32,000 nucleotides of DNA from Candidatus Saccharimonadota bacterium (GTDB lineage: Bacteria; Patescibacteriota; Gracilibacteria; BD1-5; UBA6164), in assembly GCA_965229705.1 (NCBI GenBank), contig OZ245922.1:974763-1006762 (forward strand), read 5' to 3'. Positions 318-15,018 of the stretch are shown here, piece after piece. Position numbers and translations under genes: made by a program. The first letter of the stretch is position 1; each line of letters starts with the position of its first letter. The notes under the pieces were generated by a model, which was not told the DNA's origin, ran no database searches, and was given only the letters and a program-made list of their open reading frames with translations.

Positions 318-343
318 ATATTATTTTTTAAACATTTGCAACT

Positions 344-2014
344 ATGAGATGGCTTAATGAACACTCAAAACTTTTTCTGGAAAGAGGATATTTGGTAGAA
401 TGACAAACGGCACAAAAACGACTTCGAGATATTGCAGAAAATGCAGAAAAAATACTCAAAAAACCAGGATTTGCAGATACATTTTATGGATATATGGAAA
501 AAGGGTATTACTCTCTTTCATCTCCTGTTTGGGCAAACTTTGGTCTTGATAGAGGTCTTCCGATTTCTTGTTTTGGTTCATATATTTGAGATGATATGTG
601 AAGTATCCTTCATACGCACGCAGAGGTAGGAATGATGACGAAGTATGGAGGAGGAACAACAGGATATTTTTGAGATTTGCGTCCAAGATGAGCAGAGATA
701 AAAGACAACGGACATTCTTCTGGAGCAGTACACTTTATGAAACTTTTTGATTCGTTGATAGATGTGGTATCTCAGGGAGCTGTAAGACGATGAACATTTG
801 CTACCTATCTTCCTCTTGAACATGCAGATGCAGATGAGTTTTTGGATATTCGTTCAGATGGAAACCCGATTCAGCATATCAATTTTGCCGTAACGGTCAC
901 AGATCAGTGGCTCAATGAAATGGTTGATGGAGATGAAGAAAAACGAAAACTGTGGGCAAAAGTCATTCAACGAAGGAGTGAGTGAGGTCAGCCATATATT
1001 TTCTTTACTGATAATGTCAATAATCATACGGTTGATACATATAAAGACCACAACAAGCGTATTCATATGAGTAATGTGTGTAGCGAGATCATGCTTCCAA
1101 CCGATGAAAATGAGTCATTTGTTTGCTGTCTTTCTTCTATGAATGTTGAGTATTTTGATGAGTGGAAAGATACAGATGCTGTGGAGATTATGACCTATTT
1201 TCTTGATGCCGTGATGCAGGAGTTTATTGAAAAACTTGAAGCACTCAGAGATAGCGATGACCTGCAGAAGCAGAGAGCCTTTGGGTTCATGGAGAGAGCA
1301 TATAACTTTGCATACAATCATAGAGCTCTTGGTCTTGGGATATTTTGATGGCACTCATACTTGCAATCAAAGATGATTCCTTTTGAACATCCAGATGCGA
1401 TGCAGCTCAATAAAACGATTTTTCAGTTTCTTCACGAGAAATCTTACAAAGCGTCAACGCAAATGGCAAAAGAGTATGGAGAAGCTCCACTCACACAAGG
1501 ATATGGAAGAAGAAATACGACCCTGCTTGCAGTTGCTCCAACAACCTCATCAGCGTTTATCATTGGTCAAGCATCTCAATCTATCGAGCCGTGGTGGTCT
1601 AACTGTTATGTAAAAGATCTTGCAAAGATGAAAGTCACAATTAAAAACAAATATCTTGAAGCACTTTTAGAAGAGAAGGGAAAAAATGACAGAGATACAT
1701 GGAACTCGATTCGTGATAATGATGGATCTGTACGACATCTCGATTTTCTCTCAGATCTTGAAAAAGATGTGTTTAAGACTTTTGCGGAAATCAATCAGTT
1801 TGTGATTGTAGCACAAGCAGCTGATCGTCAGCAATATATTGATCAAGGACAGTCACTCAATCTGATGGTTCATCCAGATACACCGGTAAAAGATATCAAT
1901 GCTCTTTACATAGATGCATGGAAGCAAGGAATAAAAACGCTTTATTATCAGCATAGTAAGTCTGCAGCCCAAGAACTTTCGAGAAAGATTAGTTGCGTTG
2001 GGTGTGAAGCGTAA
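344..2014 (+). CDS. nrdA: Class I ribonucleotide reductase large (alpha/R1) subunit, 556 aa, no N-terminal ATP-cone
   Basis: Start is ATG 344. The standard-code fragments (e.g. 1067..1348, 1361..2014) join in one frame through in-frame TGAs. Motifs present are SCFGSYI[G]DDM, KYGGGTTGYF[G]DLRPR[G]AEI, the catalytic loop SNVCSEI and a C-terminal Cys pair (...SCVGCEA*). Confidence 0.9.
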
Positions 2015-2801
2015 ACTCCGTACACTCCTTTTCTCAAAACTCTCATGCTGACTCCTCTATAAATGCTATTCTCTCAGAACTTATAGGATGAGTTGAAAAA
2101 TATACTCCATATTGTTCCCAATCCTCCTGGTTTCTCTCGAAAAATCATATCGCGCAACGAGTGTTCAACTGGAGATCGTGCAAAAGTTCTACTCCTCAAG
2201 CATCTGCGCTTCGTTCTAAACTGCGAGATTGAGTATTGCTAAATATTTGGGCAATCTCACTGATAGGAATACCAGAATCAAACCCCAGAAAAGCAAGACC
2301 AAGAGTCATAGGTGCGTGTACCAGGAGTCATCGAAGAGCGTCCCTATTTTCTAAATGTTCTATTTCATGACCGAGGATAAATAACAGTTCCTCTTCATAC
2401 TGTATTGCTTCTAAGAGTCACCTTGTTATCATGAGGGTTGCTCCTATCATCGCAAAGGCATTTTCTGCTTCTTCCTCAAGAATATAGATGTCATAGTCTT
2501 TACTTTGAGGAAGACGATACTGAAGACGACTCATATCAAGCTTTTCTAGCGAAGTATCAAGAAAGAGGGGACCAAGATATTTCTTTTCTTTTTCGAGGTC
2601 TATGATTAGGAGAACAGACCACGCAAATATCCAAAATGCCACATAACAAAACACTATAGCAGCGATGAGATAGCCAAGCGTTATCATTGCCCACCTCAGA
2701 TTTGGACGCAGAGGAAGTGCTTCGTGAATATTTATAGGAAGCTCTATTTTTTCAATCTCTTTCTTTTTTGTCTCATCTTTCATAGGAAAAAAATTCGTCA
2801 A
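1989..2801 (-). CDS. M48-family zinc metalloprotease (HtpX/Ste24-like), membrane anchored, 270 aa
   Basis: ORF 2418..2801(-) continues through its TGA and five further in-frame TGAs to TAA at 1989. It has an N-terminal TM segment, the motif ILGHEIEHLENRD (HExxH) and a downstream STHPISSERI (THP..eR). The 3' end overlaps the convergent nrdA stop by 26 nt. Confidence 0.75.
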
Positions 2802-2851
2802 AGAGTATTATTTTTTATAATATGAAAATATTATTTTTGTAAATAATCTCT

Positions 2852-5110
2852 ATGTCAAAGGAAAGCAAAATCATACGACCAAAGTTTTGGAGCTTTATGC
2901 TCCCTCGAAGCATAATGCTTGTGATCCTCACCATTATTATGCTATTTGTGAGTATATGACTCATGATGGAAGATATGCTTATAGGAGCAGTAGTAGCTCT
3001 TGTGAGTTTTGTCATAGTATCCTTTCTCTACTATCTTCTCTATGTGATGTACACAAAAGAGTCATATCACTTCGAAGGAAATAAAATAGTGAGATACTAT
3101 GGAACACTTTTTTCTGATAATCATCTGGAGTTACAGCTTCATCGAACAGCAATCCTGCGTCTTACCAGGCCATTTCTTTTACAAATATTTTTTTGAACTG
3201 GACATATTGCTATTCAGGCAGCAGGAAGTTCGGGAGCAAGATTTTTTCTCCAACATATAGGGAATCCTAAAGAGGTCTATGAAGAAATTCAATGATACCT
3301 GCAAGAATCGTGATTTCACCTCAAGAAAGAAAAACTCGTCCAAGAGGCTCGTCCTCATCCACTTGGAGTGTTTTGAGAAATAGGAAAGAAACTCGCAGTA
3401 ACAATATTTTTTACGGCGTATATTCTTGGTTCAATCATATATGAGTTTTCTTCACAGCTCAGTTTTGCTGGATTAGGATTTCTATCATATTTTAGCAGCT
3501 GAACTCTCATCTTGATCATATTGGGAGTATATATCTCTTTGAGCTATATGGATCTCAAGAGAAGGCGTTACAACATATATGAAGATGCAGTTGAGTTTTA
3601 TGAGTGATTTCTTACAAAAAGATATAGTGTGATTCCTATGGAAAATGTGAGCGATGTAGAAAACACGCAAAGTTTTCTCTCAAAGATTTTTGGCTTACAT
3701 GATATAAAAGTGAGTTGTGCATGATGAGAAAACGAAGTGCTATTTAAAAATATGACGCAGGGAGAAAAGATGATAGAAAATCTCAAATTTCTTAAAAATG
3801 AGATTATCCCAAAAGAGAGAGCAAAAAGTATCCCAAAAGACACTCGTTCTCTTATCAGCTTTATCGATAAGATTGAGGAGCCTCTAAAGTACGATGAGTG
3901 ATTTACCGGAGAATATAGGATGAAGTATATCAGATCTATCGCGCCATACCTGCTCTTTCTTATTCCACCACTTACCCCTGTGGGTATTGGGATGATTGTA
4001 TGGGAAACTCTTAGAGTAAAATTTACTGATTATAGTATCACTCCGTCAAGCATTGATAAGAGATTTCATTTTCTCTCAAACAAACATGTGAGCTACAGTA
4101 TTGAGAAGATTACAGGAATGATAGTGAAGAGAAATGTCATTGATATTATTTTTGGGACATGCTCTGTGAGCTTTTTGTCTCTTGGTTCAAGTGGAACGCT
4201 TGATTTTTCCAATATTGCATATAGCGAAGATATTGAGAAACATATGAGGCAAAAGGTCTGAATATATCTTCCTAAAGAACAACCTATTCTTCCTATTCGG
4301 TTTGGATATATAAACTTTTTTAAGGCAAATATTTTTTGGTCATGGTTTCTACCACTTTCTTTACCGATATATGCTTATAAGCTCTTTTTTTATTCACAGC
4401 GATTTTACAAAAATATATTTTTTGATGAGTGTATTTGTGCAAAAAAGGGAATTTTTATGCAAACAACTTTTTACGCTCTTTCGAGAAATATCAAATGAAT
4501 CACTTCTGTGAAGTATCCTCTTACTCAGGTAGGACAACTGAACTTGAATGTTGCAGGAGAGAAAATGATTCAAAGCAAAAATAAAAAAGGCTCATGACAA
4601 TGAATTATGCTGTTATCTCATAAAATACATATTCCATATCTAGATAACGTACAAGATGCTCAGGATTATTTTGATACGAGATTTTTTGGGACATGATTTT
4701 CTCGTGAAATGGTGGTTGAGACTTGACAGTCAGTAAAAAATACGCTTTTCTCTCTTAGTATTCCTTTTGCGATATTTATAGCATACATTTTTAGTCAAGG
4801 TATTATGTGACTTCTTGTATGTATAGCGCTTTTGTTAGGGTGCGCATGAATGATAGTATGGGTAATTCGTATGAGGTATTTTCGTTTGGAGAAGTCGAGA
4901 GTGATTTTCGGATCATGAATTATCTATAAAAGACGGCAGTCTATCTTGTACTCAAAATTGAACTTTATCGAGCTCAATAGATGATTTCTCAATAAGATTT
5001 TTACAAATGGGAGTATTGGAATATATACACTTGGGAGTACTTCTCGTGAGATGACGCTCAGAGATATAGATGAGTACCAAAACTTGTATGAGCTCTTACA
5101 AACTCAATAG
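2852..5110 (+). CDS. Membrane protein with about five bPH_2 (YdbS/YdbT-like bacterial PH) repeats, 752 aa
   Basis: One frame runs from ATG 2852 to TAG 5108-5110 and joins ORFs 2963..3196 and 3920..4261 through many TGAs. A pattern recurs: a hydrophobic hairpin followed by Y-x-(F/I)-...-G-(F/I)L-...-(I/V)P-...-I-...-FG-...-(I/L)-...-G. Examples are YNIYEDAVEFYE[G]FLTKRYSVIPMENVSDVENTQSFLSKIFGLHDIKVS and YFRLEKSRVIFGS[G]IIYKRRQSILYSKLNFIELNR[G]FLNKIF. Confidence 0.6.
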
Positions 5111-5816: not shown

Positions 5817-6659
5817 ATGAGTATGCAACATTTTCTTGAAACTTTGAGTGTATTTTATATTTCTCCCTCTATGATGGGGATAGTTTTTGTGATGTTGTTT
5901 CTTTTAGGAATTTCTTTTCTTTTTACGAGATTCCCTGAGAGTAACTTTTCTCTTGTATGAGATATGTTTTACGAAAAAATATTTTCTTTTTTTGATGACC
6001 TTTTATGAAGCGACTTTTCTCTTGGTACAAAAACATTTATTGTGAGTCTCTTTTTCATTATTCTTTTCACAAATATTCTTGGAATATTTTTGGATTTTTT
6101 GGCTCCTATCTTTGGTGTGAGTGAAGGGGGCTTTGTTTTGGAAAAATTTATTCGTATTCCGAGCGCTGATGTTCAGTTTAATATGGCATTAGCAATCGTC
6201 AGTATGGTACTGCTCATCTATTTACAGTTTTTAGCTCTTGGAAAAAAAGATTTTTTTCTGAGCTATTTTCCGATATATGGGAAAGGATATCTAGAATTGC
6301 AGAAGGGAAGTATGAACCATATTTTGTATTGGATCGTTTTTCCTTTGGTCAAAATTTTTGATATTCTTATATCATTTTTTCTGAGTTTTTTGGATATTAT
6401 TGGCTTGTTTGCAAAGGTCATTTCTCTGTCGTTTCGTCTTTTTTGAAATATTGTTTCAGGCGGAGTTCTCCTAGCGATACTCATAGTTGCTCTTGGGAAC
6501 TTTACGGAGTCCCTTACAAGTTTTATGGGAGGGATTCATTTTCCTGTAATACTTCCGTTGATAGTATATGCGCAGTCACTGCTTATAGCAGTGATACAGG
6601 CTCTGGTATTTTCTCTCTTGGTTGCGATATTTATGAAGGTAAGTCAGGGGGAGAATTAG
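5817..6659 (+). CDS. atpB: F-type ATPase Fo subunit a, extra copy (a1) belonging to an F1-less a/c-c/b module, 280 aa
   Basis: The frame from ATG 5817 joins to ORF 6042..6446 and onward through three TGAs. The protein is polytopic and hydrophobic. It carries the stator-arginine motif LSFRLF[G]NIVSGGVLL and the C-terminal helix AVIQALVFSLLVAIF. Confidence 0.85.
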
Positions 6660-6737
6660 GAGACAAGAGGCTACTTTTTTGCACTTATAATAAAAGTATG
6701 ATAGCATAGAAATATATTATTTCTTACACAGACACTT

Positions 6738-7187
6738 ATGGATATCTCGGCAATTTCACTTTGAGCGTCACTTTCAGTATGACTTGCAGGAATCTGAGTA
6801 GCTCTTGGTCAATCAGGACTTGCAAGAACAGCTATCGAAATGATAGGGAAGTCGCCACGACTCTCAGGAACTATGCTTATTTATACTATTCTTGGATTGG
6901 CACTTGTCGAAACAGCAATTATTTATGGACTGGTAGTAGCTTTTTCGATTATCGGAGCAACAGATGTAGGGAGTAGCCATCTTATAGGCGCTGGTCTTGT
7001 TATGGGTCTTACAGCTTTTTGAGCTGGTTATGGTGAAGGGAGACTTCTCTGCGCTGCTCTTGAAGCCGTAAATAGAAACCCAGAGAACAAGGCGCAAATA
7101 CTTCAGTATATGGTACTTTTTGCAGCACTTGTCGAGACTTCTGCTATATATGGACTGATTATTGCGATGAAACTCCTTAACGCTTAA
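6738..7187 (+). CDS. atpE: Fused tandem (double-hairpin, 4-TM) F/V-type proteolipid c-c subunit, 149 aa; both hairpins keep the carboxylate
   Basis: ATG 6738 to TAA 7185-7187, with four in-frame TGAs. Hairpin 1 reads GIGVALGQSGLARTAIEMIGKSPR...LALVETAIIYGLVVAF. Hairpin 2 reads AF[G]AGYGEGRLLCAALEAVNRNPE...AALVETSAIYGLIIAM. Each aligns position by position with a canonical c-subunit hairpin. Confidence 0.85.
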
Positions 7188-7192
7188 ATATC

Positions 7193-7660
7193 ATGCTCCA
7201 AATAGACATATACATTCTTTTTGCGCAAATAATCAATTTTTGAATTCTCTTTTTTATATTCAAAAAATATATTGCCAATGCGATGAATGCTCGAATACAG
7301 GAGCGCAGAAGAGAGCTAGAAAAACTCAAAAAAGCCGATGAACACTACGAACAAAAAATGTCTCTTGCACAACAACAAAAAAAAGAAATACTTGATACCG
7401 CTCGAGAAACAAGCTCAGCATTGATGAAAGAGTCAGAAGTGATTATACAACAAAAGGTAGGAACAATTATTGCAAAAGCCAAGCAAGAAGCTCTTGCTAT
7501 TTTGGAGAGTGGTAAACGCGAGCTGGAAAAAGACCGTCTTTCTATGCTCTCTCAGATGAAGTCTCATATTATTGATGTCTCACTCAAACTGAATGAGAAA
7601 ATGTTTGGAAAATGAAAAACCAATAAAGAGTTTTTAGAAAAAGAGTTAGAGAATTTATAG
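7193..7660 (+). CDS. atpF: F-type ATPase Fo subunit b, extra copy (b1), 155 aa
   Basis: ATG 7193 lies 5 nt after the c-c stop. One N-terminal TM segment (IYILFAQIINF[G]ILFFIF) is followed by a long charged coiled-coil region. The C-terminal block LKLNEKMF matches the LKLNEKLF of the second b gene. Two in-frame TGAs; stop TAG 7658-7660. Confidence 0.8.
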
Positions 7661-7674
7661 AAAGCTCTGAATTT

Positions 7675-7708
7675 AAACCCCGGGGTATAATACCCCGGGG
7701 TTTATTTT
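7675..7708 (+). terminator. Rho-independent terminator closing the a1/c-c/b1 unit
   Basis: AAACCCCGGGG (7675-7685) and CCCCGGGGTTT (7693-7703) form a perfect 11-bp GC-rich stem with loop TATAATA. A T-rich tail (ATTTT) follows. Confidence 0.8.
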
Positions 7709-7851
7709 GAGTGGAGGTTGGTGTGAACTCGAAGATTTTTTCTTCTTTACATACTCATAAATCCAATACAATAAAAAGTAAGATATATTCTCTTGCTTTT
7801 TCATGCTCAAAATCTCTCTCAAAATCTTTGTAATAATTCTCTGAAATTTAT

Positions 7852-7879
7852 TTGCGTTTCTCACTCTTTGACTTATACT
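7852..7879 (+). promoter_or_regulatory. Candidate sigma70-type promoter for the main atp operon
   Basis: TTGCGT (7852-7857), a 16-nt spacer, then TATACT (7874-7879), about 30 nt upstream of the small leader ORF. The call rests on pattern match only. Confidence 0.3.
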
Positions 7880-7910
7880 TGGGCGCGTTTTTAATGCAGA
7901 GGCACAATGG

Positions 7911-8018
7911 ATGATAATCATGATGGTTCTTTCCATACTTCCCCTGTACTGGTTTCTCATCAGCGTTATGAGAAATTTTCGAAAAGAATCAGAATTATTA
8001 TATAAAGATCCAGAGTAA
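7911..8018 (+). CDS. Small hydrophobic ORF (35 aa), possibly an AtpI/AtpZ-like operon-leader membrane peptide
   Basis: It reads MIIMMVLSILPLYWFLISVMRNFRKESELLYKDPE*. Its TAA (8016-8018) directly abuts the atpB ATG (8019), which suggests translational coupling. I recognise no family-level motif. Confidence 0.3.
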   Translation: MIIMMVLSILPLYWFLISVMRNFRKESELLYKDPE

Positions 8019-8858
8019 ATGGCTGAAGCATATCCTGAAAAAACAGATACCACTCCTATTGGAGAAACCTCTCACGCGCAGTCACATCATGAGTGACCAC
8101 ATATTCCTTTAATACAAGGAGAGACTGTGTATGGTCCGATTTCTAATACGACACTTACCAGTTTTATATTTTTGGTTATTGTCTTTTTTGTTGCTATTTC
8201 AGCAAAGAAAGCCCTCCTCAATAATAAAAAATCAAAACCCAAGCTCTTTTTTCTCACTTTTGTAAAATTTTTTGATGATCAGCTTCGAGATGCTTTTGGA
8301 AATAAGAAAATGGCAAGAGCCTATTTTCCCCTCATCGTAGGAATGTTTTTTCTCATACTTTTTGGAAATCTCTTTTGACTCCTCATAGACTGGTTTGGTC
8401 TTTCAGTTATGCCAAATATCCTTTACTACTTGAGACCTATGCATAGTGACATGAATACTACTCTTGTACTTGCGAGTATTACCGTTGTAATACTTCTCAC
8501 AATACAGATAAAAACTCATGGGACAGGAGGAATGCTCAAATCATATTTATGGAACTTTCAGGGAGACGGCATCATGTCAAAATGTATAAATGTCTTTGTT
8601 GGATGGCTTCATCTTATTGGTATTCCAGCGACTCTAGCATCTCTTTCTCTTCGTTTATTTGGAAATATTTTTGCGGGAATCGTTTTGATTGGAGTGATAA
8701 GTTATTTGATGGCATGAGCAACATGAGCAGTTTTTGAGATTGGAAGATTGGCAGTAATACCGTTTTGGTTTTTTGAAGTATTTGTCGCGCTGATTCAGGC
8801 GATCGTTTTTACATTTTTGATGATTGCATACTTTAAGTGAGCAAGCGAACACCACTAA
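8019..8858 (+). CDS. atpB: F-type ATP synthase Fo subunit a (a2), 279 aa
   Basis: ATG 8019. ORFs 8127..8378 and 8409..8717 join in frame through TGAs. Motifs are LSLRLFGNIFAGIVL (essential Arg) and ALIQAIVFTFLMIAYF. Stop TAA 8856-8858. Confidence 0.92.
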
Positions 8859-11995: not shown

Positions 11996-12193
11996 ATGGC
12001 AACAATACAAGTTGAGTTACCTGAACAAGTACAAGATACATTTAAAATATCAGAAGAGCCAATAACAACAGAAGACTTTCTGACTCGTCTTGAACAAGCA
12101 GAAGAAGACATGTGGATTGATATAGAGTTAGATGAACCAATATCTATGCAAGAATTTTCCAGGATGCTAAAAAAAGATATTTATGGTTCCTAA
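11996..12193 (+). CDS. Putative antitoxin of TA cassette 1, 65 aa, acidic
   Basis: It reads MATIQVELPEQVQDTFKISEEPITTEDFLTRLEQAEEDMWIDIELDEPISMQEFSRMLKKDIYGS*. The N-terminus (xIxVxLPExV) is reminiscent of a ribbon-helix-helix beta-strand. The 3' end overlaps the toxin start by 11 nt. It is paralogous to ORF 12536..12730, sharing W-x-D-(I/V)-x-(L/F)-DEP-(I/V)-x-x-x-EFS-x-x-LKK-x-I-x-G. Confidence 0.6.
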   Translation: MATIQVELPEQVQDTFKISEEPITTEDFLTRLEQAEEDMWIDIELDEPISMQEFSRMLKKDIYGS

Positions 12194-12535: not shown

Positions 12536-12730
12536 ATGGTTGTAATGGAGGTAGAGGTTCCACAAAAAATAGCAGAATCGTTTTTTGAATCAAAACAAAG
12601 AATTAGCTATGCTGACTTGAGGAAAAAAGAACAAGAAATCGAGGCGACAGAGTGGACGGACGTTATGTTTGATGAGCCTGTCCCTATAGAAGAATTTAGT
12701 GTCTACCTCAAAAAACAAATACATGGTTAA
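12536..12730 (+). CDS. Putative antitoxin of TA cassette 2, 64 aa
   Basis: It reads MVVMEVEVPQKIAESFFESKQRISYADLRKKEQEIEATEWTDVMFDEPVPIEEFSVYLKKQIHG*. It is a paralogue of 11996..12193 and overlaps the downstream toxin ATG (12723) in the same way. Confidence 0.6.
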   Translation: MVVMEVEVPQKIAESFFESKQRISYADLRKKEQEIEATEWTDVMFDEPVPIEEFSVYLKKQIHG

Positions 12731-12964: not shown

Positions 12965-13048
12965 CTTTTAACCTTAGACTTTCCACTTTAAACTTTTAAC
13001 TTGTAACTTTAAGCTTTAAACTTTTAACTTATAACTTGTAACTTCCCG
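12965..13048 (+). repeat. Array R3: six tandem 14-bp units ending at the atpG start codon
   Basis: The units are cttttaaccttaga | ctttccactttaaa | cttttaacttgtaa | ctttaagctttaaa | cttttaacttataa | cttgtaacttcccG, and the final G is the first base of the atpG GTG. The first 32 nt (12965-12996) are identical to 11905-11936 in R1. Confidence 0.85.
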
Positions 13049-13953
13049 TGGCAAACGCAAAAGAAATAGGACGAAAAATTTGAAGTATTAAAAATACCTC
13101 AAAAATCACCAAAGCAATGGAACTCATCTCAACAGTGAAGATGAAGAAAGCTCAAGACCTTGCAATGCAAAAAAAAGACTTTGTGATAGAAATGCTGAAA
13201 GTATTTTCTCGTATTGAAGGTTTTTTAGAAGATTTTTCATATTTTCAAAAATATGAGAGTCAGAAAACTCTGGGGATCATTATCACTTCAAATAAAGGTT
13301 TATGTGGAGGGTATAATGTAAATGTTTTAAAAAAAGTACATGAGTACACAAAACAAAATCCAGATGAAGATATGGACTATATCAGTCTTGGGAAAAAAGC
13401 AGCAGCCTTTGTAACTCGAACAGGAAATACGCTTCATGCAGATTTTTCTCCAGAGTATACAGATAATATTGATACACGCTTTGTAAAATCTCTCACGCAG
13501 ACTATGTATGATGCCTATCTTTCTGGAAAATATGGGAAGGTTGTAGTGTTTTATAACTACTATGTCAACTCTATTAAACAAATTCCGGTTGCCCGAGAGT
13601 TTCTTCCTATTGATGCTCAGGGAGTACGAAACTATCTTGAGAGCATTATTGATGACGAAAAGGTTCTTGAAGATATAGGAAGCGAGACTATAGATTATAT
13701 TATAGAACCAAGCTCAGAGTCTATTGCTGATGATCTTATACCAATGATTCTTGATATGATGTTTTATGATATTTTACTTCAGGCAAAAGCCTCAGAACAC
13801 TCAGCAAGAATGGTTGCGATGAAAGCAGCAAAAGACAATTCTCAAAAAATTGCGGATATGCTCACACTGCAGTTTAATAAAGCCCGCCAAGGACTCATTA
13901 CTAGAGAAGTATCTGAGATAGTCGCAGGTGTTGAATCTCTCAAGGATACCTAA
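13048..13953 (+). CDS. atpG: F-type ATP synthase F1 subunit gamma, 301 aa, GTG start
   Basis: Starting at GTG 13048 the N-terminus reads (M)ANAKEIGRKI[G]SIKNTSKITKAMELISTVKMKKAQ, the canonical gamma N-terminus. The C-terminus reads ...ARQGLITREVSEIVAGVESL. ORF 13117..13953 is the part downstream of the TGA. Confidence 0.93.
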
Positions 13954-14022
13954 CAATTCTTGAGAGAAGTATTTGAAAAACACGATACAAGAAAGATTTT
14001 ATTTTTTTACACATATCTTCGT

Positions 14023-14475
14023 ATGAAATATATAAGCATAGCTCTCAAGATGATGATAAATATCGCGTTATATTGTATATATGTGATTTGTATTTCTTTT
14101 GTTTTTTCTTTCTTTTTCCCTCTAGCACTCAGACTTATGGGAAAAAATATTCCACACTACGCAGATCCAGTTTTTGTCAAAATCCAAGTATTTATTGCAG
14201 CTCTTGTACTCCTATTGTCCCTTATTTTTCGTAAATATCTCTACACTTCCTGTAAGGATAAAAAATATCTTTCTGCAAAAAATCAGAAATCTAGTAGTAA
14301 TCCAACAACTACTCAAGCTCATAATCATCAAAAAACAGTGAAAAAAACGGTAAAAACACCAGCAAAGAAAACTCCTGCAAAAGCAAAAAAACCAGTAAAG
14401 AAAAGAGCAAGTTCTCAGGCAAAAACAAAAAAAGAAGATGATATGAAAATATATGTAGAAAAAGAAATAAAATAA
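14023..14475 (+). CDS. Hypothetical membrane protein with a Lys/Pro/Ala-rich basic tail, 150 aa
   Basis: ATG 14023 lies within ORF 13960..14475. There are two predicted TM helices (INIALYCIYVICISFVFSFFF and VFIAALVLLLSLIF). The tail reads KTVKKTVKTPAKKTPAKAKKPVKKRASSQAKTKKEDD, resembling a histone-H1-like AKP repeat. I recognise no family. Confidence 0.5.
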   Translation: MKYISIALKMMINIALYCIYVICISFVFSFFFPLALRLMGKNIPHYADPVFVKIQVFIAALVLLLSLIFRKYLYTSCKDKKYLSAKNQKSSSNPTTTQAHNHQKTVKKTVKTPAKKTPAKAKKPVKKRASSQAKTKKEDDMKIYVEKEIK

Positions 14476-14619: not shown

Positions 14620-15018
14620 ATGTTACTACGAGTATATACAGATTGAGGATCTAGAGGGAACCCATGAGTGGCAGGCCTAGGAGTGTATATAGTGGACAAA
14701 GAGGGAACACCTCTTGAGAGACGCTATAAGTATCTCGGAACGACGACCAATAATATCGCCGAGTATACAGGGGCATTCTATGGAATAAAAAGAGCTCTTG
14801 AGCTCTGAGCTACACAGATAGAACTCTATATGGATTCAAAACTGGTTATATCGCAACTCAAGGGAGAGTGGAAGGTAAAAGACGCTGAGCTCAAAAAAAT
14901 TTATTTAGAGATTCTCCAGTTAGTATGAGACAGAGATGTGAGCTATAACTGGATCCCAAGAGAGCAAAATACTGAGGCAGATGCACTCAGTAATAAAGCT
15001 ATGGACGAAAAGATCTAA
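14620..15018 (+). CDS. rnhA: Ribonuclease HI (type 1 RNase H, short archaeal/actinobacterial-like form), 132 aa
   Basis: Absent from the standard-code track because it has four in-frame TGAs. It reads MLLRVYTD[G]GSRGNP[G]VAGLGVYIV...TNNIAEYTGAFYGIKRALEL[G]ATQIELYMDSKLVISQL...WIPREQNTEADALSNKAM. The D-E-D-D catalytic positions are present (YTDGG, AEY, MDS, EAD). Confidence 0.8.

Follow-up and report, generated by a model that had tools for sequence, protein, structure and literature searches.

How a single F1 head comes to be encoded beside two sets of genes for the membrane sector (Fo) of ATP synthase is the question raised by a stretch of 32,000 nucleotides of contig OZ245922.1 (assembly GCA_965229705.1, positions 974,763 to 1,006,762), referred to here as the window. 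Two Fo gene sets stand against a single delta/F1 set within this locus, as the original prediction had pointed out. A type-1 trio encodes a subunit a (a1), a subunit c of two fused hairpins (cc) and a subunit b (b1), and a type-2 cassette encodes a small AtpZ-like protein, a2, c2 and b2 (Table 1). The answer favoured here, with somewhat better than even confidence, is that the locus encodes two alternative F1Fo isoforms, which would share delta and F1, would each have their own a subunit, rotor ring and b subunit, and would differ in rotor and ion chemistry and probably in the conditions under which they are made. The cell would thus assemble two alternative enzymes on one F1 head. In the membrane each stator would pair with its own rotor ring, and both b dimers would dock onto the same short delta through a common C-terminal segment. 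In this lineage the type-2 cassette, the more conventional of the two, lies between the type-1 cassette and the single delta/F1 set. Given the contrast in rotor build and ion-site residues between cc and c2, the two sectors might provide the enzyme with two coupling ions, or with two ion/ATP gears.

Under translation table 11, the region appears as a patchwork of short open reading frames (ORFs), and reading TGA as a sense codon gives long ORFs throughout the window. The glycine in the a1 motif LSFRLF-G-NI is encoded by a TGA codon, and this column holds glycine in 39 of 39 relatives. Since TGA codons fall at columns that are glycine in relatives, the window uses table 25 (TGA=Gly). The best matches of the window proteins are proteins of Gracilibacteria, and the flanks hold ordinary chromosomal genes, namely those for ribonucleotide reductase, an M48 peptidase, GlmS, PurK, aspartate kinase, a Mur ligase and MurA.

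The trio at 5817-7660 was described earlier as a subunit a with the essential arginine, a fused double c and a b, and matches to PF00119, PF00137 (twice) and PF00430 confirm it. Each of the three proteins shows the defining features of its subunit, which places the trio among F-type Fo sectors. The essential arginine of a1 (RLFGN) and its helix-6 motif IQA..VF are invariant in 39 a1-type sequences. Homologues of cc form 66 clusters of 38-97% identity, in which both ion-binding glutamates are invariant; in an alignment of 24 homologues, E58 and E133 are invariant, and Y63 and Y138 are invariant or nearly so. The best match of cc in the PDB is the double-hairpin c1 of Acetobacterium woodii (4BEM_J, E=4.9e-13, over the full length), with further matches to A. 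woodii c2 and to the c subunits of I. tartaricus and F. nucleatum. The PF00430 domain spans residues 8-137 of b1. The genes are closely packed, with 78 nt between a1 and cc and 5 nt between cc and b1. The a1-cc-b1 group adjoins delta and F1 in about 35 related loci, and in the window it does so only across the inserted type-2 cassette. The best explanation of the trio is that it would form a complete and functional type-1 Fo sector, with a1 as stator, a double-hairpin c rotor and b1 as stalk.

The type-2 cassette has different relatives. The best PDB matches of a2 and c2 are subunit a (9ITJ_T) and subunit c (9ITJ_H, E=1.8e-19) of Chloroflexus aurantiacus. Of 420 homologues of a2, all named ones belong to Gracilibacteria or Altimarinota, and the essential arginine and the helix-6 motif are invariant in 12 a2-type proteins. 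The high divergence of the two a subunits, remarked upon in the original prediction, amounts to 28% identity between a1 and a2. The gap of 358 bp between b1 and a2, which gives the impression of a non-coding spacer, holds a conserved AtpZ-like ORF (7803-8018). In all dual-Fo and all a2-only loci this ORF immediately precedes a2, and it is never found before a1 (hidden Markov model E-values of 1e-10 to 1e-34). Its orthologue in locus L011 matches PF09527 (ATPase_gene1) with E=2.2e-5 and 24.8 bits, below the cutoff of 26.6.

Comparison with relatives defines the status of the two cassettes. A profile scan with the cc alignment, with one genome per species, yielded 75 loci from Gracilibacteria, Absconditabacterales/SR1, Vampirococcus lugosii and metagenome-assembled genomes (MAGs) labelled Peribacteria; loci L081-L083 and L086 were reached through a search with a2. 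Table-25 ORFs were called in all loci and scored with the window proteins, and 10-kb flanks were covered. This check of synteny in other table-25 genomes, proposed with the original prediction, distinguished four gene orders. Class I comprises about 35 loci of Gracilibacteria, among them those of Vampirococcus and of the closed genome CP042461.1, and consists of a1-type, cc-type and b1-type genes, a 115-aa delta, alpha, gamma, an optional membrane protein, an optional RNase H, beta and epsilon, with no second Fo set found within the 10-kb flanks. Class II is the tandem arrangement and recurs in at least 12 loci (the window, L001, L007-L013 and L084-L086): a gene for a cyclic-nucleotide-binding (cNMP) protein on the minus strand, a1, cc, b1, about 300 bp with the AtpZ-like ORF, a2, c2, b2, delta and F1. 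Class III, found in SR1, has a1-type, cc-type and b1-type genes followed by about 500 bp and then alpha onward. Class IV (L081-L083) runs from the AtpZ-like gene through a2, c2 and b2 to delta and F1; no type-1 genes were found within 10 kb, and the contigs listed for the 68 cc matches do not include that of L081 (1.49 Mb). Since the scan was seeded on cc, the frequency of class IV cannot be inferred from it.

Each Fo type therefore has genomes in which it directly precedes the orthologous delta and F1 genes. The original prediction viewed the trio as an extra module lacking F1, placed ahead of a complete operon. The gene orders change this picture, in that a1-cc-b1 is the Fo type of most sampled Gracilibacteria and of SR1, and AtpZ-like-a2-c2-b2 is equally the optional part. 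The trio thus represents the common Fo type and the type-2 set a second cassette. In functional terms the intuition behind the original prediction may still hold, as a1 evolves faster in dual-Fo than in single-Fo genomes. The same data bear on the proposal that a1-cc-b1 works without F1, as an ion channel or as an ion-driven rotor for another purpose. In the window, neither delta nor F1 genes belong to the module itself, which may be transcribed on its own, and a related a-cc-b trio lies away from F1 genes in four loci (L003-L005 and L072). A role of this kind is very improbable, however, as the orthologues are the sole Fo found beside F1 in the roughly 35 class I loci and b1 keeps the delta-proximal C-terminal block in common with b2, which would be pointless without F1. 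Furthermore, free Fo acts as an uncoupling leak, as is generally known for the E. coli Fo.

The b subunits link the two cassettes to the common head. Overall, b1 and b2 are 32% identical and share the block LKLNEK(M/L)F. The b alignment was split into three regions for identity comparison. In the N-terminal, transmembrane (TM) region, identity is 54% within type 1, 70% within type 2, 16% between the types and 37% between type 1 and SR1. In the C-terminal 46 aa, the corresponding values are 53%, 54%, 42% and 14%. Judged by these identities, b is a mosaic, whose membrane end tracks its own cassette and whose delta/F1-reaching end is common to both Gracilibacterial types. This would amount to a division of labour within b, the membrane end following its own cassette and the top end following the common delta/F1. 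The earlier suggestion that both b subunits could dock onto one delta/F1 is backed by this comparison. It is the mosaic, together with the class I and class IV gene orders, that constitutes the main support for a shared head.

The two rotors also differ in their predicted ion sites. The numbering of I. tartaricus c served as a ruler, and it gave the published residues Q32, V63, E65, S66, T67 and Y70. At positions 32/65/66/67/70, hairpin 1 of cc has Q/E, E, T/S, A and Y (Q-E-T-A-Y in the window), and hairpin 2 has E, E, T, S and Y in 9 of 12 class II loci, as in the window (E-E-T-S-Y). In c2, these positions hold V/I, E, A, I/V and Y in all 15 type-2 sequences, and the contrast between the two types is conserved throughout the clade. 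Sodium coordination involves residue 32, Glu65, Ser66, the carbonyl of Val63 and a water molecule positioned by Thr67 (PMC3692424), and in a comparative study all enzymes predicted to use Na+ had a polar residue at position 67 (PMC2359735). By these residues, c2 is predicted to have a plain proton-type site, and cc appears to carry a partial to complete Na+ ligand set. Different coupling ions for the two sectors are thus plausible.

Both cassettes are kept whole in the tandem loci. In every class II locus, none of the six Fo genes is truncated, and the divergence of this class is considerable (alpha identity down to about 80%, a1 down to about 45%). The closest comparison is with L086, which is 97-99% identical to the window. 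The ratio of nonsynonymous to synonymous substitution rates (dN/dS) in this pair is 0.033 for cc, 0.058 for b1 and 0.049 for b2, next to 0.031 for gamma and 0.044 for alpha among the F1 genes; changes in a1 and a2 are too few for a judgement. Against distant class II loci, dN is 0.36-0.55 for a1, 0.23-0.40 for a2, 0.14-0.36 for cc and 0.09-0.18 for c2, with dS saturated and far higher. Both Fo sets are intact and under purifying selection, which answers the earlier call to look for gene decay in relatives. The tree of subunit a has a deep split between the two types, and the a1 sequences of class II make up a single clade with class I as its sister. Within class II, the topologies of a1 and a2 broadly agree, indicating a long joint inheritance of both cassettes.

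Several observations weigh against the two-isoform reading. They concern ion chemistry, the evolution of a1, the boundary between the units and the count of F1 sets. As for the ion site, hairpin 1 of cc has Ala67, and the Na+ ligand set is complete only in hairpin 2, so that a cc ring would be complete at every second site at best. Authors of the Vampirococcus genome judged the c subunit of that organism to be proton-type. Compared at equal divergence of alpha, class II genomes conserve a1 less well than class I genomes, by 11-17 identity points, which points to a partly relaxed constraint on dual-Fo a1; conservation of a2 and b2 in class II is like that of a1 and b1 in class I. In L086, a 2-kb insertion with two ORFs of unknown function (110 and 504 aa; 6780-8632) separates a1 from cc, and L009, from a sea-ice MAG, contains a decayed, fragmentary third a1-cc-b1 copy among repeated elements (323-3884). 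The subunit a trees were built by neighbour-joining and carry no support values. Locus structure varies between strains, as seen in L086, L084 and L009.

Some of these points would fit a frozen cassette replacement, in which one set, likeliest type 1, is redundant, little used and heading for loss, and a single Fo works with F1. In its favour are the faster evolution of a1 and b1 in dual-Fo genomes, the insertion in L086 and the fragmentary extra copy in L009. Fo type is patchily distributed on the F1 tree, where a1-only genomes alternate with a2-only ones; this implies repeated gain or loss. Moreover, a2-only sequences adjoin dual-Fo a2 sequences in the tree. Nevertheless, at least 12 dual-Fo loci of deep divergence carry all six genes at full length and with their catalytic residues invariant. 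This, together with dN/dS values of 0.03-0.06 for cc and b1 against the closest relative and a joint inheritance too long for a brief transition, makes such a replacement distinctly unlikely.

The boundary between the two units is less uniform than expected from the window. The original prediction noted a strong terminator after b1, and in this strain the hairpin at 7674-7704 is indeed strong (dG -30.4 kcal/mol, z = -5.8, matched by 0 of 200 shuffles). In L086, a different sequence occupies its place and the remaining spacer is nearly identical. A stem-extension scan found terminator-like hairpins at most 35 nt from the b1 stop in L084/85, L007, L009, L010 and L012, and none within that distance in L086, L001, L008, L011 and L013, that is, in 5 of the 12 dual-Fo loci. 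The strong terminator is therefore strain-specific. A scan for sigma-70 promoters gave fewer sites than in shuffled sequence, and for this reason it says nothing on a separate promoter; no site reached the threshold in the 100 bp before the AtpZ-like gene. Rfam gave sub-threshold matches only, all due to the terminator hairpin.

Other loci keep the units apart by other means. In L084/85, a gene of 294 aa on the opposite strand lies between b1 and the AtpZ-like ORF (L084 10925-11809, in an 82% relative), and in L077 the block of the cNMP gene, a1, cc and b1 is relocated 3 kb downstream of epsilon. The possibility that the b1-a2 spacer of the window is a remnant of the 294-aa minus-strand gene was rejected, as no similarity was found. 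Separation of the two units is thus common, not universal. In this strain, the terminator between them suggests that the two Fo units are probably expressed differently.

The count of F1 sets was addressed through the beta subunit. Among the best 120 matches listed, there is one close beta cluster for each of the large dual-Fo contigs (1,355,370 and 739,812 bp), and a divergent second beta would escape this listing. It is on this limit that the proposal of a second F1 set elsewhere in the genome, to which the module would belong as part of a split N-type or other second ATPase, depends. The proposal is scarcely credible. The NCBIfam models for the "alternate F1F0" enzyme score far under their cutoffs, atpQ and atpR were not found nearby, and the orthologous trio directly precedes delta and F1 in relatives. 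The single close beta cluster per large dual-Fo contig, among the matches listed, speaks against it as well, as do the sizes of the largest contigs and complete genomes among the loci, which are about 1-1.5 Mb.

If the head is shared, delta becomes the point where the two stalks would meet. A delta-like gene stands between b and alpha in all Gracilibacteria classes. Its product has no Pfam or NCBIfam match, and a profile of 23 orthologues matches only one PDB sequence, the C-terminus of yeast OSCP, weakly (E=0.62). The protein is best described as a putative delta cut to 115 aa, which would keep the C-terminal domain and about 45 aa N-terminal of it; typical bacterial delta subunits have roughly 180 aa. 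Of the second unit as first described, a2, c2, b2, alpha, gamma, beta and epsilon are all present, and it is only the "delta" that needs this qualification. The shortened N-domain, the mark of Chloroflexus-type enzymes, is found here and throughout the Gracilibacteria classes. Loss of most of the domain that restricts F1 to one stalk opens the possibility of multi-stalk enzymes across the phylum.

Such an enzyme has been described in C. aurantiacus, whose F1Fo has the composition alpha3 beta3 gamma epsilon delta2 a2 b4 c10 (PDB 9ITJ), with two a subunits and two stalks joined by a delta dimer with a shortened N-domain; an engineered Bacillus PS3 enzyme without the delta N-domain takes up to three stalks (PMC12002316). 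This precedent gives weight to the view that both cassettes enter one particle, as two stators on one ring, as a b1-b2 heterodimer stalk or as a mixed cc/c2 ring. Delta is far shorter still in the window (115 aa, as opposed to 157 aa in C. aurantiacus), a2 and c2 are closest in the PDB to the C. aurantiacus chains, cc matches A. woodii c1, a member of a mixed ring, and b1 and b2 have their C-terminal end in common. A joint particle, the main rival to the two-isoform reading, nonetheless seems unlikely. The short delta is also found in single-Fo genomes and, being equally short there, does not explain why two sets are kept. Both cassettes are complete with a, c and b, and relatives have one or the other alone. 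Low identity between the types marks the TM ends of b (16%) and the a subunits (28%) as strongly type-specific and suggests that each stator fits its own partners. Terminators or an opposite-strand gene lie between the units, which are unlinked in L077, and a mixed ring would have to move its polar and apolar sites past both a subunits.

A bolder idea, to which only slight credence can be given, is that the 115-aa delta no longer limits F1 to one stalk and that the dual-Fo enzyme bears both stators at once or exchanges its Fo sectors, with one head coupled to both Na+ and H+. If this were true, ATP, the proton gradient and the sodium gradient would be interconvertible in a cell without a respiratory chain.

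The two alternative isoforms proposed here can be set beside several known systems. The Na+ F1Fo of A. woodii (4BEM) has, like the window, a double-hairpin c with Na+-type ligands (Q/E32, E65, T66, S/T67 and Y70). Its c genes belong to one operon with a single a and b, and their products form one mixed ring. The second hairpin of A. woodii c1 lacks the carboxylate (AVAQTTGIY), whereas cc keeps both, and the fused c of the window has its own a and b, followed by a second full a-c-b set. A hybrid rotor of the A. woodii type was rejected on these grounds, with cc and c2 in separate cassettes; the original prediction had likewise set the locus apart from the extra c genes of this organism.

Genomes with both an F-type enzyme and an N-ATPase are alike in having two membrane sectors, one of them with extra polar or carboxylate ligands. 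N-ATPase operons include genes for beta, epsilon, alpha and gamma as well as atpQ/atpR, and lack delta, whereas one F1 set is present in the locus studied here. An N-ATPase identity was rejected by score, with 23.2 against a cutoff of 302.1 bits for a1 (TIGR03306), 60.5 against 130.85 bits for cc (TIGR03322) and 32.7 against 224.7 bits for b1 (TIGR03321). It was rejected by gene content as well, as the characteristic genes do not stand beside a1-cc-b1 and relatives have the delta-like gene after b1. The distinction from N-ATPases drawn earlier is thus upheld. A V/A-type proteolipid was also rejected, since models for V-type K remain below cutoff (for instance, 43.9 against 211 bits) and the partners of cc are a 280-aa F-type a and an F-type b stalk, as opposed to an a/I subunit of about 650 aa and E/G-type stalks.

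Split atp operons of alphaproteobacteria keep Fo genes apart from F1 genes and have one Fo set. They resemble the window in having a separate Fo unit, but here there are two Fo sets, one of them still linked to F1. The b/b' stalks of cyanobacteria, chloroplasts and some proteobacteria likewise combine two diverged b paralogues with one F1 (PMC12002316). In those enzymes there is only one type of a and one of c, whereas each b of the window comes with an a and a c of its own and is found alone in relatives. The C. aurantiacus enzyme is similar in its shortened delta N-domain and provides the closest solved relatives of a2 and c2, but its two a subunits and four b subunits are each described in the structure paper as copies of one protein, in contrast to the divergent a, b and c genes of the window.

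Literature on the ATP synthase of Gracilibacteria, Absconditabacteria and Patescibacteria and on multi-hairpin c subunits yielded no description of two full a-c-b cassettes with one F1, within an incomplete coverage that makes this absence of evidence only. The genome papers on Gracilibacteria and Vampirococcus go no further than naming "an F-type ATP synthase". According to such papers, neither Gracilibacteria nor SR1 has a respiratory chain, and their authors find it puzzling that an F1Fo ATP synthase is present. The arrangement described here offers a handle on this puzzle, namely which ion each isoform would move, in which direction and when. In effect, the Fo of Gracilibacteria comes as two interchangeable cassettes that differ in rotor build and ion-site chemistry and are both kept by a whole clade. 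For the mechanics of ATP synthases, the arrangement would provide a natural example of a single F1 head that serves two different stator-rotor pairs, of interest to specialists in ATP synthases and in candidate phyla radiation (CPR) bacteria alike.

Table 1. Features of the ATP synthase locus, with positions in the window.
Feature	Position	Strand	Evidence
Stand-alone cyclic-nucleotide-binding protein, 158 aa	5165..5641	-	PF00027, E=2.3e-20; divergent from a1
a1, type-1 Fo subunit a, 280 aa	5817..6659	+	PF00119, E=1.4e-22
cc, type-1 Fo subunit c, two fused hairpins, 149 aa	6738..7187	+	Two PF00137 stretches
b1, type-1 Fo subunit b, 155 aa	7193..7660	+	PF00430, E=1.4e-10
Intrinsic-terminator-like palindrome followed by TTTT	7674..7708	+	Palindrome 7674-7704, 14-bp stem, 8 G-C, loop 3
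AtpZ/AtpI-like small membrane protein, 71 aa, two hydrophobic helices	7803..8018	+	Conserved ORF abutting the a2 ATG
a2, type-2 Fo subunit a, 279 aa	8019..8858	+	PF00119, E=2.7e-37
c2, type-2 Fo subunit c, single hairpin, 73 aa	8937..9158	+	PF00137
b2, type-2 Fo subunit b, 166 aa	9346..9846	+	PF00430
Delta/OSCP-like subunit (putative), 115 aa	9859..10206	+	Position between b and alpha; weak OSCP profile match
F1 alpha, 501 aa	10241..11746	+	Translation; phmmer orthologues in all loci; Pfam domains recorded for L001 orthologue
F1 gamma, 301 aa, GTG start	13048..13953	+	Translation; orthologues in relatives
F1 beta, 463 aa	15046..16437	+	82-92% identical to Gracilibacteria beta subunits
F1 epsilon, 143 aa	16449..16880	+	Translation; orthologues in relatives

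The cNMP-binding protein, which has no DNA-binding domain, is a conserved divergent neighbour of the first Fo gene of either type. Its gene stands ahead of a1 in dual-Fo loci and in L026 and L054, and ahead of a2 in L082; the loci that carry it as a divergent neighbour are L001, L002, L006-L013, L026, L054 and L082. This conservation makes it a candidate regulator or sensor tied to the ATP synthase locus.

The F1 genes do not form an unbroken run, being interrupted by unrelated genes, namely two small paralogous ORFs, a membrane protein gene and an RNase HI gene. The paralogous ORFs (11996-12193 and 12536-12730) encode acidic proteins of 65 and 64 aa in the 1.3-kb gap between alpha and gamma, and similar ORFs occupy the same place in L008, L009 and L086. 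Between gamma and beta, 13960-14475 encodes a membrane protein whose tail is rich in Lys. Most Gracilibacteria loci of classes I and II, and one of three class IV loci, have an ORF of weak similarity (28-75 bits) at the same place, and the protein is a candidate lineage-specific accessory subunit of the ATP synthase. The RNase HI gene at 14620-15018 (PF00075/PF13456) follows in the same gap and has the same place in many relatives. Other insertions within the operon include an asparaginase gene (L081) and a ParE-like toxin gene (L083).

In relatives, the cc-type gene can be a single ORF with 4, 6, 7, 8, 10, 12 or 13 hairpins (about 300 to 968 aa), in which odd-type and even-type hairpins alternate. 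Examples, among many more, are L076 2388-4643 (Vampirococcus lugosii), L056 9935-12193, L053 1071-3764 and L015 6091-8994 and 9986-11329. The glutamate is kept in every hairpin of the L076, L053 and L056 ORFs. In some genomes, two multi-hairpin c genes flank a1 (for instance, 13+6, 12+2 or 6+6). A few internal hairpin repeats are identical at the protein level, and confirmation by long reads is advisable. Such ORFs would be whole F-type rotor rings in one polypeptide. To our knowledge, single-chain rotor rings are known only from the archaeal A-type enzyme of Methanopyrus kandleri and from engineered fusions. With F-type chains of 10 to 13 hairpins, the ring size could be read from the gene if one chain forms the entire ring. 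Subunit K of M. kandleri contains 13 hairpins in one polypeptide (PMC2359735). That enzyme is an archaeal A-type ATPase, whereas the c genes with 4-13 hairpins are bacterial and F-type; the window cc has only two hairpins.

Other lineages reached two Fo sets independently. The complete SR1-like genome CP060225.1 carries a tandem duplicate of a1-cc-b1 (L019 6570-10375), and in one MAG a divergent a gene, a single-hairpin c gene and a b gene come after a1-cc-b1 (L069 4666-9309). In a group whose fused-c gene is free of TGA and reads identically under table 11, and in oral SR1 HOT-345, the a-cc-b trio is isolated, with no F1 gene within 10 kb (L003-L005 and L072); in L003-L005 it sits between genes for a PD-(D/E)XK nuclease and a pseudouridine synthase. 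Finally, a 2.5-kb contig filed under a Sulfurimonas MAG (L047, WFPU01000238.1), probably mis-binned, carries a Gracilibacteria-type a1, a six-hairpin c and b1.

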